Of a stretch of 64,000 bases of DNA, positions 2,154-32,483 are shown piece after piece. The position numbers and the translations under genes are program-made. Origin of the DNA: Candidatus Nomurabacteria bacterium GW2011_GWD2_36_14. GTDB lineage: Bacteria > Patescibacteriota > Minisyncoccia > Phycocordibacterales > UBA9973. Every line of letters starts with the position of its first letter. Within the stretch, counting starts at the first letter, position 1. Below the pieces are notes generated by a model. It ran no database searches and had not been told where the DNA came from. It was given only the letters and a program-made list of their open reading frames with translations. Where the stretch lies: assembly GCA_000991405.1 (NCBI GenBank), contig LBRL01000001.1, positions 315,200 through 379,199 of the forward strand. The letters are read 5' to 3'.

Positions 2154-2906
2154 TTATCCATTTGGGTACATTTTAATTGCTAGTTTCTTACATTCTTCGA
2201 GAATTCCCTCTTCTTCTGGCAAGACAAGCGGAACTTCACGGTGAAATTCGGATACAGTGCCACTCACAAAATCTTTTAGTAGTTCTATTTGAACTTCGTG
2301 TTCTACAAGCAGGACTCGAGCTTGTAAGCTCTCGGCTGTATCGTCAGGTAATATTGGTATTTGTTTTCTTTTTAATACTACACCTTCGTCAAACTTTGCT
2401 GTTACTCGGTGTGCCGTCGCCTCAGTCCAGAAATCTCTCTCTACTTTTTGTACAAAGGAAAGTCTAGCTTGATGCACTCGCATACCATACATACCGACTC
2501 CTCCGAAGTCTAGGTGTCCGGCTTGCCCGCCTGAATTACTTGTATTTTGGCGGGTGTCGAGTGGCCCTGGATGCTGGTTGATAATCATTCCCTCAAATTC
2601 ATTGATTACATTCTCGGGAGTCATTACCATCCAGCCATATTGACCAATGAAGTCCACATTTCTCTTTCTGCATTCCTCTATAATTTTCTCTCCAAATTTT
2701 TCCCGAGTCTCAAAACTTTTCGGATTTATAACTAAAATATCCTCTTCTTTTATTCCAAGTCTGCTGGCCCTCTCTATGCCTCCCGCATTTTCCTTACTCG
2801 CTATGACTAAGGCGGGTATGACACTCGAAAGTACCCCACTATGGCAAGCTTTGATAATAGCTTCCATTGTAGTTCCTCCTCCTGAAATAAGTAATGCAAT
2901 CCTCAT
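2154..2906 (-). CDS. purN: Phosphoribosylglycinamide formyltransferase (PurN-like, with an insertion)
   Basis: N-terminal LISGGGT nucleotide-binding motif, then HPGPL...TAHRV..FDEG.V pattern of the formyl_trans_N family. It is the last gene of the pur cluster. Confidence 0.7.
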   Translation of the reverse strand: MRIALLISGGGTTMEAIIKACHSGVLSSVIPALVIASKENAGGIERASRLGIKEEDILVINPKSFETREKFGEKIIEECRKRNVDFIGQYGWMVMTPENVINEFEGMIINQHPGPLDTRQNTSNSGGQAGHLDFGGVGMYGMRVHQARLSFVQKVERDFWTEATAHRVTAKFDEGVVLKRKQIPILPDDTAESLQARVLLVEHEVQIELLKDFVSGTVSEFHREVPLVLPEEEGILEECKKLAIKMYPNG

Positions 2907-2916
2907 ATATAAAAAA

Positions 2917-4326
2917 TTAATTTTTAAACCTCAAGCTATCATACTTTATCTCTTTTTCATGCTCATATATAGGCAATGGATACTCTCCATTGAAAGCAGA
3001 TAGGCATAGTCGCCCCTTGGGTAATCCTGTAGCTTTTACCATGCCATCGATAGATAAGAAAGTAAGAGAAGTAGCTCCTATGAATTGTCTTGTCTCTTCG
3101 ATTGTCTTCTGTGATGAAATTAAATTTTCTTGACGAGGTGTATCTATACCGTAAAAGTCTGGGAATTTGACAGGAGCAGAAGCAACTAAAAAGTGAACCT
3201 CCTTAGCACCTGAATCAAAGAACATTTTAGCTATATCTCGAGAAGTATTACCGCGAACAATCGAATCATCTATGACTCCTACTCTTTTCCCTGTAACTAA
3301 ACTTCGAAGAACAGTGAGCTTCATTTTTATCTTCTGTTCGCGATTGGCTTGAGTCGGCTCAATAAATGTCCTATGAATATATCTATTCTTATTTAAAGCC
3401 ATTTCAAAAGGAACTCCAGATGCATGAGAATAACCAATAGCAGAAGGAATAGCTGTCTCAGGTACTGGAACGATGAGATCGAGTTTAAGTTTAGGATTTT
3501 CCTTAAATAACATTTTGCCGAAATTTTTACGGACTTCGTAGACAGATTGTCCAAGTATCTTGCAATCATGACGAGAAAAATAAACGAATTCAAAAATATC
3601 AAACTTAGGATCTGCTGTAGCTAATATTGTACTTTTCATACCACTTTTAGAAACAGTCACCAACTCACCAGGGAGAACTTCTCTTAAGAATTTAGCATTA
3701 ACCGTTCGAAGCCCACAGGTCTCTGAAGCGAAAACTGTCTCTTCCCCATTTGTTCCGACTACTAGAGGTCTTATTCCTCTAGGATCACGGAAGGCAACGA
3801 GTTCCTTGGTTGAAAGTGCTACACAAGAAAATGCTCCAGTAAAAAGTGGATACGCCTTCTCTACCGCTTTAGACAGTGACATTCCTTTATCCATATAAAA
3901 CCCAATAGCCTTCGCCATAAGTTCAGAATCTGAATGTCCCTTCGTCACTATTTTATTATTCTTAAGAAAATCTTCCAATGCTTTAGTATTAGGTAGATTG
4001 CCATTGTGAGCAAAAGCAAATTTATCGTTGTGAACAATCGGCTGAGCATGCTTTGTACTAGAACCACGAGAAGTAGAGTAACGGTTGTGTCCAATAGCTG
4101 CGAAACCTTCAAGACTTTTAATTATCTTCTCTGTATATACCTGACTTACAAGTCCTGATTTCTTGTATGAAAATATTTTCTTCCCATCGGTAGATGCTAT
4201 ACCTGTCTGCTCTTGACCCCTATGCTGCAACGCAAAGAGTCCAAAGTAAGCATAACGAGCAGCTTCTTTGCCATCCCAAATTCCAAAAACTGCACATTTT
4301 TCATTTATCCCATTAGAGATTTTCAT
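2917..4326 (-). CDS. purF: Amidophosphoribosyltransferase
   Basis: CAVFGIW...LQHRGQEQTGIA N-terminal nucleophile (Ntn) glutaminase motif plus a PRTase domain. Confidence 0.85.
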   Translation of the reverse strand: MKISNGINEKCAVFGIWDGKEAARYAYFGLFALQHRGQEQTGIASTDGKKIFSYKKSGLVSQVYTEKIIKSLEGFAAIGHNRYSTSRGSSTKHAQPIVHNDKFAFAHNGNLPNTKALEDFLKNNKIVTKGHSDSELMAKAIGFYMDKGMSLSKAVEKAYPLFTGAFSCVALSTKELVAFRDPRGIRPLVVGTNGEETVFASETCGLRTVNAKFLREVLPGELVTVSKSGMKSTILATADPKFDIFEFVYFSRHDCKILGQSVYEVRKNFGKMLFKENPKLKLDLIVPVPETAIPSAIGYSHASGVPFEMALNKNRYIHRTFIEPTQANREQKIKMKLTVLRSLVTGKRVGVIDDSIVRGNTSRDIAKMFFDSGAKEVHFLVASAPVKFPDFYGIDTPRQENLISSQKTIEETRQFIGATSLTFLSIDGMVKATGLPKGRLCLSAFNGEYPLPIYEHEKEIKYDSLRFKN

Positions 4327-20888: not shown

Positions 20889-21533
20889 ATGGCAAAAATA
20901 GAAAAAAGCCAATATAAAAAGATTAAAAAAATGTATACTGAAGGCAATACAATGTCGGATATAGCAAAATATTTTAAAGTACCTCTTGATGCAATTGTAT
21001 ACGCCATGAGAAAAGCCAAAATCCCCCGTCGATCAATGAGTATGGTTCAAAAAATACGATTCATAAAAAAGCCAGCTTCATTTCAGATTCGTAAAATAAA
21101 TAATGAAAAATCTAAAAAAATTTTAATTGCGGGACTAATGTTATATTGGGCTGAAGGATATAAAACCTCAAAGAGTAGCGGAGTTGATTTTGCAAACAGT
21201 GACTCTGATATGATAATTACTTTTATGAAATTTCTAAGAACTTGCTATAAGCTCGACGAAAAACGTCTGCATGTTTTATTATATTGCTACAATGATCAAA
21301 GTATTTCAGAATTAATGCAATTTTGGAGTAAAAAAACCGGAATCCCAAGTGAACAATTTTCAAAACCATACGTTAGAGAAAAAATTAATACAAATTCAAG
21401 ACAAATGAAGTATGGATTAGTACATATTCGATATAGTGACAAAAAATTAATTTTTGATATACTAAAGCGTATCAATATTTTAAAGAAAGAATTATGCGTC
21501 GGTGGTGGAGTGGTCTATCACAGGAGTCTGTAA
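20889..21533 (+). CDS. HTH-containing protein with a degenerate LAGLIDADG-like motif (LAGLMLYWAEGYK); its 3' end overlaps tRNA-Tyr
   Basis: 214-aa ORF. It has an N-terminal HTH-like region and a single LAG-...-EG motif. The last 38 nt, including the stop codon, lie inside the tRNA-Tyr gene. Confidence 0.4.
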   Translation: MAKIEKSQYKKIKKMYTEGNTMSDIAKYFKVPLDAIVYAMRKAKIPRRSMSMVQKIRFIKKPASFQIRKINNEKSKKILIAGLMLYWAEGYKTSKSSGVDFANSDSDMIITFMKFLRTCYKLDEKRLHVLLYCYNDQSISELMQFWSKKTGIPSEQFSKPYVREKINTNSRQMKYGLVHIRYSDKKLIFDILKRINILKKELCVGGGVVYHRSL

Positions 21534-21578
21534 AACTCCCGCCTTCGGGCTTCGTTGGTTCGAATCCAACCCGGCGCA
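21496..21578 (+). tRNA. tRNA-Tyr (anticodon GTA), class II with a long variable arm
   Basis: Acceptor GCGTCGG/CCGGCGC, anticodon loop CTGTAAA, T-arm GTTGGTTCGAATCCAAC, discriminator A. Confidence 0.8.
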
Positions 21579-21855
21579 CAAAAGAAAAAAGAGGAGCAAC
21601 TTGTTGTGCTCCTCCAATAAACTATATACATATATAAGCGCAGTTACTCACCCTACATATATTAAACTTCTTGACTCAGAAGTTGCTCTTAAGAAATAGA
21701 AACACCTCACAGATGTGAGTATGAACATCTTTCTAATCAATACAATAAAAGAGTCATTTCTAATGCATTGTGCTTGTTTTTCCCTTTACGAGTATACTTG
21801 TTTTTGAGCTATATAGTTCATTCATAGATTACTATAATTTCACCTTTTGTCAAAC

Positions 21856-31249: not shown

Positions 31250-31321
31250 GGCCTGGTAGCCAAGTGGTAAGGCAGAGATCTGCAAAATCTCTATGCGGCG
31301 GTTCAATTCCGCCCCAGGCCT
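31250..31321 (+). tRNA. tRNA-Cys (anticodon GCA)
   Basis: Acceptor GGCCTGG/CCAGGCC, anticodon loop CTGCAAA, T-arm GGCGGTTCAATTCCGCC, discriminator T. Confidence 0.85.
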
Positions 31322-31441
31322 CAGCAGGGAGTATGCAAACTACTTTGCATACGTGGCGGAATTGAAAGACTTTTCATTATTTGTTTAATAACAAATTGAA
31401 AAGTACCCGCGACCGTTGGGCGAAATTCCGCCCCAGGCCTC
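31322..31441 (+). mobile_element. Miniature element 3' of tRNA-Cys. It ends with a 16-bp direct repeat of the tRNA 3' end (attccgccccaggcct) and may be an att-like remnant.
   Basis: Perfect hairpin GTATGCAAActaCTTTGCATAC (31331-52), then GAAAGACTT, then GTACCCGCG (31403-11), then a copy of tRNA-Cys 31305-31320 at 31425-31440. Confidence 0.45.
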
Positions 31442-31547
31442 CCTAAAGTAAATTTAGTAAAATTTACTCGGGCGAACAATTTTTAACAAAATTGTTTTAG
31501 CCAAATAAGTAGCAATTTTTATAATTTTTTGCTAGTATGTTTTATAT

Positions 31548-31631
31548 GCCGGGGTGGCGAAATTGGTAGACGCACTGCTCTTAGGAAGCAGCGAGAGTAA
31601 TCTCATGAAAGTTCAAGTCTTTTCCCCGGCA
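31548..31631 (+). tRNA. tRNA-Leu (anticodon TAG), class II
   Basis: Acceptor GCCGGGG/CCCCGGC, anticodon loop CTTAGGA, long variable arm, discriminator A. Confidence 0.85.
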
Positions 31632-31835
31632 CATATTAAAAAACATTATGAAAATAGTGTTTTTTATATGATGTCGGGGAGTAAGCAAACTTCTTTGCTT
31701 ACGTAGAAGACTTGCACAGCGGAGTCATATTTTCTTACCAAAGAAAATAGATGAGCTGGTGACCAGACAAAACTTTTTGACGAAAAAGTTTTAGTCGAGG
31801 TCAAGAAGCGTACCCGCGGTCTTTTCCCCGGCACC
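31632..31835 (+). mobile_element. Second miniature element, homologous to the one after tRNA-Cys. It ends with a 15-bp direct repeat of the tRNA-Leu 3' end (gtcttttccccggca).
   Basis: Hairpin GTAAGCAAActtCTTTGCTTAC (31681-702), then GAAGACTT, then GTACCCGCG (31810-18), then a copy of tRNA-Leu 31617-31631 at 31819-31833. The repeat overlaps the 3' end of the LAGLIDADG ORF. Confidence 0.45.
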
Positions 31836-32483
31836 AAGTTTTTTGGATTGCTTCAAAATTTTAAAGGCTATATTTCTTTTCCTAGATAAAGAAGTATTTT
31901 TACCTTTATATATAAATTGTAAAACTTTTATACTATCTTCTTTTGCAAAAGTTAATGTATAAACTGATGATTCTTTAGGTAGACAAATTGAACCACCTTT
32001 AACTTCAAATAATTCAATACAAGATTTTAATATCCACTCTAGAAATAATTTACTAGCTGAACAAAGCCTTACCTTGTATTGAGGATGCTTACTTTCCTTA
32101 TGTTTTGAAATTGTAATACTTCCATCTCCATCAATACATCCTCGAAGAAAATCTTTAAAATATTCTTTTGGTATTTTTAATTCATTTATCGTTTTAGATT
32201 TTTTGGGAGTAATTCCTATACTTAATAAAAACTCAAAAAAGTTTTTATCTCCAAATTGTAAAACATAATATTTCTTATCTTTTGATCCACCCCGAGCCTT
32301 TTTGCCAATAAGGTTGTTGATTCCTAAACATTTCTTACAATTTAACAGCATTTCTTCATCTTTTGAAGTAATATGAATATGCCGTAAATCTGGAGATAGA
32401 TTACCATCTGTAGCAATTACTCCTATAACATAAGCAAAATCACCATTCCATTTTATTTTCACATTCCCCTTTCGATATGCCAT
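31791..32483 (-). CDS. LAGLIDADG homing endonuclease (two-motif, monomeric type)
   Basis: Motif 1 VIGVIATDGNL and motif 2 LRGCIDGDGSI, ~105 aa apart. The last ~14 codons are read through the tRNA-Leu 3'-end repeat. Confidence 0.75.
   Translation of the reverse strand: MAYRKGNVKIKWNGDFAYVIGVIATDGNLSPDLRHIHITSKDEEMLLNCKKCLGINNLIGKKARGGSKDKKYYVLQFGDKNFFEFLLSIGITPKKSKTINELKIPKEYFKDFLRGCIDGDGSITISKHKESKHPQYKVRLCSASKLFLEWILKSCIELFEVKGGSICLPKESSVYTLTFAKEDSIKVLQFIYKGKNTSLSRKRNIAFKILKQSKKLGAGEKTAGTLLDLD

Follow-up and report, generated by a model that had tools for sequence, protein, structure and literature searches.

Two short segments behind tRNA-Cys and tRNA-Leu

The 64,000 nucleotides of Candidatus Nomurabacteria bacterium GW2011_GWD2_36_14 studied here (contig LBRL01000001.1, positions 315,200 to 379,199; hereafter the window, with all positions counted from its first letter) contain two short noncoding segments, E1 and E2, which lie behind the genes for tRNA-Cys and tRNA-Leu and measure 119 and 202 nt from repeat to repeat. 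An identical copy of the locus is present in assembly GCA_001786355.1 and on a Rifle scaffold of about 800 kb; comparison loci from other genomes and metagenomes carry L-numbers. Both segments are closed by a direct repeat of the 3' end of the upstream tRNA gene, as an earlier note on this sequence had reported. These repeats are exact and slightly longer than noted, with 18 nt for tRNA-Cys (AATTCCGCCCCAGGCCTC, at 31305–31322 and 31424–31441) and 16 nt for tRNA-Leu (GTCTTTTCCCCGGCAC, at 31617–31632 and 31819–31834). Each starts inside the T-loop, ends one base beyond the discriminator, and occurs just twice in the window with up to 3 mismatches tolerated. Also shared by the two segments is a hairpin of 9 bp with a loop of 4 nt, GTAWGCAAA-CTWC-TTTGCWTAC, which the window holds solely at 31331–31352 and 31681–31702 (2 matches versus 0.02 expected).

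The host or target gene of E1, tRNA-Cys(GCA) (31250–31321, plus strand like all parts of both elements; ARAGORN and Rfam RF00005 with 66.3 bits), ends in the first copy of its repeat, A1(Cys) (31305–31322), which comprises the 3' part of the T-loop, the T-stem 3' strand, the acceptor 3' strand, the discriminator and one further base. E1 itself is a 119-nt insertion at 31323–31441, and the repeat allows its boundaries to be placed up to 18 nt further to the left. Its hairpin P2 (GTATGCAAA-CTAC-TTTGCATAC, 31331–31352, all 9 pairs formed, with compensatory changes across the family) has GA and GT flanks and is followed by an antisense segment, A'2 (GGCGGAATTGAA, 31355–31366). This is the exact reverse complement of TTCAATTCCGCC in the T-loop and T-stem 3' strand of tRNA-Cys, and it pairs with 31424–31432. 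Next comes a structured domain of the type that we call class A (31367–31423), made of a joining 'AG', helix P4 (31369–31376 with 31397–31404), the junction J4/5 ACCCG (31405–31409) and hairpin P5 (31410–31422), and E1 closes with A2(Cys), the second exact copy of the tRNA-Cys 3' end (31424–31441).

At tRNA-Leu(TAG) (31548–31631; ARAGORN and Rfam), the host or target gene of E2, the first repeat copy A1(Leu) (31617–31632) is separated from the element by an AT-rich palindrome, AAAAAACATTAT-GAAA-ATAGTGTTTTTT (31638–31665), whose sequence reads like a bidirectional terminator and which recurs behind tRNA-Leu in L057 and the element-free L050 and behind tRNA-Gly in L003. E2 contains A'1 (TGTCGGGG, 31672–31679), a strand resembling an acceptor 5' strand that is predicted in the minimum free energy (MFE) structure to pair with CCCCGGCA of either repeat copy. 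P2 (GTAAGCAAA-CTTC-TTTGCTTAC, 31681–31702) and A'2 (AGAAGACTTG, 31705–31714, complementary to CAAGTCTTTT of tRNA-Leu with one G-U pair) lead into a class B domain (31717–31806), in which P4 (CAGC/GCTG) has a GGA/GA internal loop and P5 (GACC...GGTC) encloses a hairpin. A mini-hairpin insert of 12 nt (AGCGTACCCGCG, including GTACCCGCG, 31807–31818) sits within the T-loop-like junction before A2(Leu) (31819–31834), the second exact copy of the tRNA-Leu 3' end, which is followed by CA and thus by an encoded CCA.

The insert is the same in L007, L039 and L058, with variants in L023, L038 and L054. Mini-hairpins of 12 to 14 nt (AGCGTACYCGCG; variants GCGAAGCG and CATGTACTCATG) occupy the same junction spot in otherwise different elements and behave like an even smaller mobile hairpin module.

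E1 and E2 are homologous in the hairpin module alone, and their domains belong to different classes. Two further motifs that the earlier note had listed as conserved parts dissolve on this reading of the anatomy. The GAA(A)GACTT of E2 is the reverse complement of the tRNA-Leu T-loop and T-stem, and that of E1 joins the last bases of the T-loop complement of tRNA-Cys to the first bases of helix P4. GTACCCGCG, in turn, is the J4/5–P5 core of the class A domain in E1 and the mini-hairpin insert in E2, and is not significant alone. The most diagnostic feature had been overlooked, namely the reverse complement of 10 to 12 nt of the upstream T-loop and T-stem 3' strand directly 3' of the hairpin. 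The proposed pairing of the 5' ends with the 3' repeats exists in E2 (TGTCGGGG with CCCCGGCA); for E1 it is unconserved, as the L051 orthologue lacks it.

Insertion polymorphism and exchange of modules

In L054 and L064, tRNA-Cys is joined straight to CCCTAAAGTAAATTTAG, the flank that follows 31441 in the window, so that E1 is a 119-nt insertion. The same site is filled in L051, L060, L004 and L012 (where the copy is decaying) and empty in most relatives, including the closest one, L041, with 95% IF-2 identity. The acceptor of tRNA-Cys differs in L051 (CCACGCC), and the terminal copy of the element there tracks that acceptor. At tRNA-Leu(TAG), the sites of L050, L075, L094 and L104 are empty, and those of L042, L052, L054, L057, L058 and L060 are filled with elements of different classes. 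The search for presence/absence polymorphism suggested in the earlier note has thus turned up intact empty sites in related genomes, and its view of discrete insertions 3' of tRNA genes that are bounded by a tRNA 3'-end repeat and form one family holds.

Hairpins and domains have been exchanged between elements, and their arms follow the adjacent tRNA. The domains of E2 and L058 are about 95% identical over 105 nt, but their arms correspond to two tRNA-Leu genes of clearly different sequence, and P2 is missing from L058. On contig L035, elements behind tRNA-Arg and tRNA-Leu have a common 58-nt core with 1 mismatch and different arms. Conversely, L006 and L013 are about 98% identical across the tRNA end, spacer, P2 and A'2 and have unrelated domains. 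One P2 26-mer, GAGTAAGCAAACTGCTTTGCTTACGT, is shared unchanged by Saccharibacteria and Kaiserbacteria and accompanies each of the three domain classes, which for a dispensable and sporadic sequence argues for horizontal spread or module exchange.

Copies occur in several states. There are full tandem copies (L017, L037 and L021), partial units on the right-hand side with a break inside P2 or A'2 (L006, L013, L032, L034 and L060), decayed copies (L012, L030 and L040) and an orphan (L026, 2608–2800) of class B, whose arms match a tRNA-Leu-like 3' end and for which no tRNA was detected in the 8-kb locus. In L024 (2090–3400), the T-loop GTCAGCA of tRNA-Asp is mirrored in the A'2 of two elements, and the sense copies keep a canonical-looking CAAAT; these arms are direct evidence of sequence exchange between a tRNA and an inverted arm. 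Polymorphism by precise insertion or deletion bounded by the repeat, exchange of hairpin and domain modules and arms that track the adjacent tRNA are therefore properties of this family.

A family of Patescibacteria

The pattern GAGTANGCAAANNNNTTTGCNTACGT, scanned against 185,579 species represented by one genome each, located the hairpin at 38 genome loci, all of them in Patescibacteria (Paceibacterota, Saccharibacteria, and Kaiser-, Nomura-, Moran- and Taylorbacteria). It lies 0 to 85 nt downstream of a tRNA or transfer-messenger RNA (tmRNA) gene and on the same strand in nearly all 38, with the tRNAs including those for Pro, Cys, Arg, Tyr, Leu (three isoacceptors), Lys, Ile, Ala, Met, Ser, Val, Gly and Phe. 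The combination of hairpin and antisense arm is found behind at least 15 tRNA species and behind tmRNA (L005 and L020), and the hairpin is followed in every case by 10 to 14 nt that repeat the T-loop and T-stem 3' strand of the host gene as reverse complement. Even atypical T-loops are mirrored (TCCGATT as AATCGGA and GTCAGCA as TGCTGAC), so that 'CGAAAG' is a templated sequence that only looks like a fixed motif. The antisense segment follows 45 of the 82 tRNA or tmRNA genes in the hairpin loci, for which we estimate a chance expectation of about 2, and in about 15 of these 45 the hairpin has diverged or is missing. In an unbiased sample of 69 metagenome loci picked by IF-2 synteny alone, the signature is present behind 16 of 105 distinct tRNA loci (about 15%).

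The hairpin pattern has zero matches in 2.9 million viral contigs, and among the matches of two 14-mer domain patterns there, which are dominated by chance, filtering left one genuine element-bearing contig (L129, IMGVR_UViG_3300033463_005745). Its tandem class B elements (2880–3319) lie at the edge of a viral-classified contig, which may represent a prophage boundary at a tRNA or a misclassified fragment from the candidate phyla radiation (CPR).

Rfam 15 yielded only the two tRNAs and noise for the window region at E<=10, and only tRNA and tmRNA at gathering score for the window plus 18 element-bearing loci. No description of such elements was found in nonexhaustive checks of the full-text literature on tRNA-like, trailer, inverted-repeat and RNA-motif topics in CPR bacteria or Patescibacteria, and two candidate papers on tRNA gene fragments (PMC9897764) and TIGR-Tas (PMC12045711) proved unrelated. 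The family is widespread in Patescibacteria (CPR) and apparently undescribed.

Common architecture and conserved fold

On the plus strand, the tRNA is followed in turn by an optional long and near-perfect AT-rich terminator-like palindrome, an optional A'1, GA, P2, GU, A'2, 'AG', the structured domain and A2. As a whole, A' reproduces the neighbouring gene as reverse complement, from the discriminator back to T-loop position 54. A'1 covers the discriminator and the acceptor 3' strand and often extends the palindrome, while A'2 covers the T-stem 3' strand and the entire T-loop and terminates exactly opposite position 54. A2 repeats the gene in sense orientation, starting at about position 56 and reaching the discriminator or sometimes the trailer. 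At least three domain classes can be told apart. In class A (E1), the P4 hairpin is followed by ACCYG and a small hairpin with a GUA loop. In class B (E2), P4 has an internal GGA/GA loop, and a GGUC/GACC helix encloses a hairpin that often bears GAGC-N3-GCGA. In class C, P4 has a UGAG/CGAAA loop and is accompanied by GUACYG and a GUAA hairpin. P2 is optional too: in L025, L036 and L058, the perfect reverse complement of the tRNA end runs through 21 nt with no interruption.

Predicted MFE folds form a three-way junction of P1 (optional), P2 and P3 (A'2 with A2), closing the domain, and are far more stable than shuffled sequence (z = -5.46 for E1 and -7.44 for E2). The P2 stems comprise at least 12 sequences among 52 nonredundant hairpins, all of 9 bp, and 464 of their 468 pairs are Watson-Crick (plus 3 G-U and 1 A-C). 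We tested covariation on an alignment of 14 class A sequences against 500 shuffles and slid controls. Paired cells make up 93.5% of this alignment versus 76.7% in shuffles, and both sides change in 13 of 23 pairs. The covariation score is 0.464 versus 0.141 in shuffles, with 0 of 500 reaching the observed value and slid controls at or below 0.125. Individual compensatory changes are seen between the window and L051 (GC to AU in P2 and AU to GC in P4) and between E2 and L058 (GACC/GGUC to GGCC/GGCC). A comparison of A' with the tRNA versus the element's own copy is biased by construction and carries no weight for a guide function. Hammerhead, k-turn and pseudoknot (GUA loop with UAC) interpretations of the domain motifs could not be substantiated.

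The folded strand is the plus strand. Its MFE is the lower one in 19 of 26 cases, and the conserved mismatches are purine-purine (G-A) on this strand and pyrimidine-pyrimidine on the opposite one. Single-strand folding of the tRNA-sense strand is hence under selection, and the idea of a degenerate tRNA pseudogene or tRNA fragment does not fit: only positions 56 to 73 or so are copied in sense, the T-loop complement and the strand resembling the T-stem 5' strand form an inverted copy, and the interior is a conserved non-tRNA fold with covariation. The tRNA-half mimic suggested in the earlier note is borne out by a T-like helix (A'2 with A) that is universal, but not by the acceptor-like helix, which is optional and, unlike in tRNA, pairs through the discriminator into the trailer.

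A fold of this kind raises the question of whether the elements are small RNA genes or modules of tRNA 3' trailers. Such RNAs would mimic the acceptor/T minihelix of their neighbour and combine it with a protein-binding domain. Their role would concern the host or its tRNAs: they could, for instance, decoy or regulate an enzyme or toxin that senses acceptor/T-stem identity, or form a module for processing or quality control. They would have spread by local duplication and gene conversion with no transposition. The conserved multi-helix fold with its compensatory changes is what one would expect of them, as are the GA-type internal loops and the recurrent apical GAGC-N3-GCGA, both on the plus strand only. 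E1, L009, L014 and L017 are closely coupled to their tRNA with no terminator in between, so that these copies must be co-transcribed, and many units have a terminator of their own behind them (L008, L052, L057 and L003). There is also precedent for functional RNAs made from tRNA precursors, such as 3'ETS-leuZ of E. coli (from a 3' external transcribed spacer) and the dicistrons of tRNA and small nucleolar RNA (snoRNA) in plants. The plant dicistrons are cited in PMC12045711.

However, the elements are sporadic: the unbiased sample has them at about 15% of its tRNA loci, and the closest relatives are empty at the same site. Decayed, truncated, tandem and orphan copies exist. The optional acceptor-like helix, paired through the discriminator into the trailer, is unlike the substrates of RNase P, RNase Z and the CCA-adding enzyme, and the T-loop is replaced by its own complement. 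Most copies stand behind a terminator-like hairpin and no promoter-like site was found, and P2 is nearly free of G-U pairs (3 of 468). We consider small RNA genes of this kind, the main rival to our preferred reading given below, unlikely on this balance.

Possible origins: integration scars, by-products of replication or homing elements

The direct repeats of tRNA 3' ends had first been taken for the classic attL/attR footprint of integrative elements that target tRNA genes. The elements would then be scars of tyrosine- or serine-integrase elements at tRNA T-loops, either as miniatures reduced to the att sites and mobilized in trans, like cis-mobilizable elements (CIMEs), or as the ends of deleted prophages or islands. 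Williams (2002) reportedly classified tRNA att sites, including a T-loop type, and the repeat from T-loop to discriminator matches the identity block of such sites. Arm boundaries (53/54 and about 56 to 60) coincide with the cut positions of such integrases, tmRNA is a target as well (L005 and L020), L024 has an open reading frame (ORF) of 257 amino acids between tRNA-Asp 3'-end copies, and tandem copies lie on one IMG/VR contig (L129).

Against this, no integrase was found in or near any copy, and one conserved core stands behind at least 15 tRNA species and tmRNA, whereas integrases are site-specific. The interior consists of a target-complementary arm and of hairpins and helices with compensatory changes, not of arm-type sites conserved for protein binding, and the hairpin pattern is absent from the 2.9 million viral contigs. 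About 60 copies were examined; all of them measure about 100 to 210 nt with no graded series of deletions, and none contains an ORF. We therefore regard the att explanation as very improbable, and the elements are not remnants of large integrated elements, in contrast to one of the two readings given in the earlier note. Its other proposal, that the elements are non-autonomous, applies if they are mobile, because they carry no integrase.

Passive by-products of replication or repair would be another source of such sequences. Template switching at palindromic terminators and at the quasi-palindromic, universally conserved T-loop would duplicate the tRNA 3' end in direct and inverted orientation, and ectopic gene conversion would homogenize the interiors, leaving functionless sequence with no dedicated machinery. 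In line with this, the acceptor 3' strand is part of long, nearly perfect palindromes that have the terminator at their centre (L025, L030, L032, L035 and L036), and copies lacking P2 hold an uninterrupted perfect reverse complement of A (L025, L036 and L058). Right-hand duplications vary in length and take in trailer sequence (L008, L060 and L006), the aberrant T-loop of tRNA-Asp is mirrored in two A' arms, and the P2 pairs are almost exclusively Watson-Crick. Furthermore, the terminator palindrome extends 4 to 8 nt into the tRNA in the element-free L043, L052 and L075.

Yet template switching leaves unexplained why a homologous hairpin and three domain classes recur across classes of Patescibacteria, why substitutions preserve helices, and why module order is fixed, boundaries fall at T-loop positions 54 and 56 and 26-mers are identical in distant lineages. 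We find such a passive origin improbable.

The extended palindromes of L043, L052 and L075 reach into the acceptor 3' strand (e.g., as GTGCCCAG after the T-tract) and may be precursors or scars of elements. A terminator-like CA(C/T)TAT-N4-ATAGTG with perfectly symmetric A/T arms is seen at different tRNAs and in different genomes (31638–31665 in the window, L050, L057, L044 and L003), and its loops are sometimes mutual reverse complements (AAAA versus TTTT), as expected if the palindrome flips.

Our preferred reading, which we hold tentatively, is that E1 and E2 are copies of a family of protein-less, structure-dependent insertion elements specific to Patescibacteria that home to the 3' ends of tRNA and tmRNA genes and whose arms are kept in match with the tRNA by base pairing and gene conversion. 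In the tRNA-sense strand, as single-stranded DNA or transcript, A' would pair with the 3' segment of the tRNA itself or with the terminal copy of the element, so that the same internal 'guide' could mark the target and left junction and, via the terminal sense copy, the right end. Guide bases beside the hairpins of IS200/IS605 and REPIN elements specify target and end by a comparable logic, which would here be greatly extended. An enzyme acting in trans, recognizing the hairpin or the junction, would place the unit 3' of the tRNA or remove it from there. Since every copy ends in a regenerated target, tandem arrays would arise, and the direct repeats would make precise loss possible. After insertion, gene conversion among the tRNA, A' and A may keep or make the arms match the tRNA, which would be the only one of these three repeats under translational selection. 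In class B elements, the right end GUGACC(R)A may mimic the T-arm sequence GGUUC(R)A, much as the right end of IS608 mimics its target. Going further, the family may constitute a new class of protein-less mobile elements of the CPR, with the target written in an internal antisense 'guide', arms re-templated on the adjacent tRNA, and nucleic-acid-guided, reprogrammable movement by a trans-acting enzyme that reads P2 or the three-way junction; this is possible, if somewhat unlikely in our judgement.

Several observations weigh against homing insertion elements. There is one perfect hairpin where IS200/IS605 ends have two related imperfect ones, and the 'target' measures 17 to 21 nt versus 4 to 5 nt in IS200/IS605. 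The annotated parts of the window showed no Y1/HUH transposase, reverse transcriptase or integrase, and none of these was enriched near elements. A move to a new tRNA requires a change of both arms, which gene conversion could explain, but no intermediate with clearly foreign arms is proven, and the A'2 of L052, which resembles a tRNA-Cys arm, is suggestive only. The GA-rich internal loops and multi-helix junctions look like RNA-protein motifs and are superfluous to a transposition model, and the patchy distribution could also result from ancient presence and repeated precise loss via the direct repeats. Finally, many copies stand behind a terminator-like palindrome with no promoter-like site found, which leaves expression, if required, unexplained.

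Other candidates were rejected. A group I intron or another form of splicing is incompatible with an upstream tRNA that is already complete, with an E1 lacking an omega-G-compatible junction, with an endonuclease outside the element and with the lack of any intron model match. The A' arm is not the primer-binding site of a retroelement, as it runs on into the complement of the genomic trailer and not of CCA, and an RNA-guided nuclease using the 3' copy would target the intact tRNA gene of the same genome.

Relation to known systems

Integrative elements at tRNA or tmRNA ends and CIMEs with T-loop att sites share with this family the position 3' of the gene, a repeat from T-loop to 3' end that leaves the tRNA intact, polymorphism and tandem accretion. 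They differ from the elements described here, which have no integrase, measure 100 to 210 nt, serve many tRNAs per family and contain an internal target complement and compensatory helices.

Similar in several respects are the palindrome-associated transposable elements (PATEs) of IS200/IS605 and the repetitive extragenic palindromic (REP) sequences and REPINs linked to RAYT, both tied to Y1 HUH transposases. These are likewise protein-less hairpin units that are mobilized in trans (as ours would be, if at all), with hairpin-adjacent bases that pair with the target or end (in ours, putatively), a target-like right end, strand-specific single-strand folding and population-like evolution within genomes. 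By contrast, our elements have a pairing segment of 10 to 21 nt (versus 4 to 5), one perfect hairpin, a long target copy, a large structured domain and no linked Y1 transposase. P2, which is single, perfect and missing from some copies, lies between the target-complementary A'1 and A'2. Insertion of the IS200/IS605 type, at a 4–5-nt target with no duplication, is not what is seen either, as the element ends in a 16–31-nt copy of leftward sequence.

Integron cassettes and attC sites resemble the family as non-autonomous arrays at a fixed site, with a site defined by a folded single strand that varies in sequence but keeps its structure, a variable terminal structure and an enzyme encoded elsewhere (the site and the enzyme being proposed for our elements). 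Here, however, the arms copy the adjacent tRNA, there are no R and L boxes, no IntI-like gene was seen, and cargo ORFs are usually absent, with L024 as a possible exception.

Among RNAs derived from or mimicking tRNA (3'ETS-leuZ, plant tRNA-snoRNA, the tRNA-microRNA of murine gammaherpesvirus 68, tmRNA and YrlA), the likeness lies in a place directly behind a tRNA and in possible release by tRNA-processing enzymes. The coaxial acceptor- and T-like helices with a branch at the position-7/8–48/49 junction recall tmRNA in particular. Features setting our elements apart are the T-loop complement, neighbour-specific helices, a paired discriminator, sporadic and polymorphic occurrence and the lack of an Rfam match.

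The omega-RNA of TnpB and the homing CRISPR RNA of type V-K CRISPR-associated transposons similarly have a scaffold followed by a tRNA-identical 3' segment of about 16 to 20 nt near a T-rich motif (TTCRA of the T-loop) and lie downstream of tRNA. In our case, there is no TnpB or Cas12k nearby, the putative guide is paired to A', and the nuclease would cut its own tRNA gene.

Judged by the defining features that could be tested, the family does not qualify as tRNA-site elements, as REPINs or PATEs, or as integron cassettes. We know of no described element whose conserved and exchangeable core is framed by forward and inverted copies of a neighbouring tRNA 3' end, and we therefore rate the family as a new kind of element with an unproven mechanism.

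Neighbouring genes and other features of the locus

None of the copies contains an ORF, and E1 and E2 overlap only the tail of a LAGLIDADG endonuclease ORF that lies outside (31791–32483, minus strand). This free-standing ORF abuts the terminal tRNA-Leu copy of E2, and its last 16 codons or so are antisense to the E2 3' end. In L063 (2431–3096; protein 83% identical) and L064, the LAGLIDADG cassette abuts the real tRNA-Leu 3' end at the same junction (GGCAC|CAAG...) with no element, and other loci have elements and no LAGLIDADG ORF; the gene is a separate passenger outside E2. More distant LAGLIDADG homologues (L065/L090, L099 and L105) lie beside other tRNAs of the cluster, and these endonucleases may target tRNA gene ends.

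Across the 38 element-bearing loci, the only enriched neighbours are syntenic housekeeping genes (IF-2 and RbfA), and integrases were found neither in nor beside any copy. A search for a longer, autonomous version, defined by a tRNA-end copy at a distance above 420 nt, led only to L024. Its ORF of 257 amino acids, bracketed by tRNA-Asp 3'-end copies like the cargo of a cassette, has a predicted N-terminal membrane anchor, is not an integrase and shows no enzymatic signature among those tested.

The tRNA-Cys/Leu junction is a rearrangement hotspot. At one syntenic position, close relatives (L042 to L064) carry two distinct tRNA-Leu(TAG) sequences (acceptor GCCGGGG or GCTGGGG versus GCCCAGG), and the tRNA-Leu gene is inverted in L041, L044, L047, L049, L051, L053 and L062. 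About 60 nt behind tRNA-Cys and E1 (31441–31500), with the AT-rich hairpins GTAAATTT-AGTA-AAATTTAC and AACAATTTT-TAAC-AAAATTGTT and the motif GGGCGAAC, are present in the window, L054 and L064 and absent from L042, L043, L050, L052 and L056, where tRNA-Cys and tRNA-Leu are about 50 nt apart; this segment may be an older decayed element.

Elsewhere in the window, tRNA-Tyr (21496–21579) is element-free with a plain terminator downstream, while the tRNA-Tyr of L008 carries an element. An ORF of 214 amino acids with no Pfam match (20889–21533, plus strand) runs into the 5' end of this tRNA-Tyr. A stand-alone '23S rRNA intervening sequence protein' of 116 amino acids (PF05635; 43043–43393, minus strand), related to the Avd accessory protein of diversity-generating retroelements, adjoins ssb and rpsS6.

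Implications

If insertion is indeed guided, it implies a CPR enzyme that reads a hairpin together with a paired target of 10 to 20 nt, which is a design principle of programmable recombinases and transposases. If the elements are RNAs instead, organisms whose translation machinery is minimal possess a large family of tRNA-specific minihelix mimics that is unannotated. In both cases, the elements mark rearrangement hotspots and can mislead the annotation of tRNAs, att sites and prophage boundaries, and they account for a sizeable share of the tRNA-adjacent intergenic DNA in Patescibacteria, with repeats that are able to convert the tRNA itself, as illustrated by the tRNA-Asp whose aberrant T-loop is mirrored in its elements.

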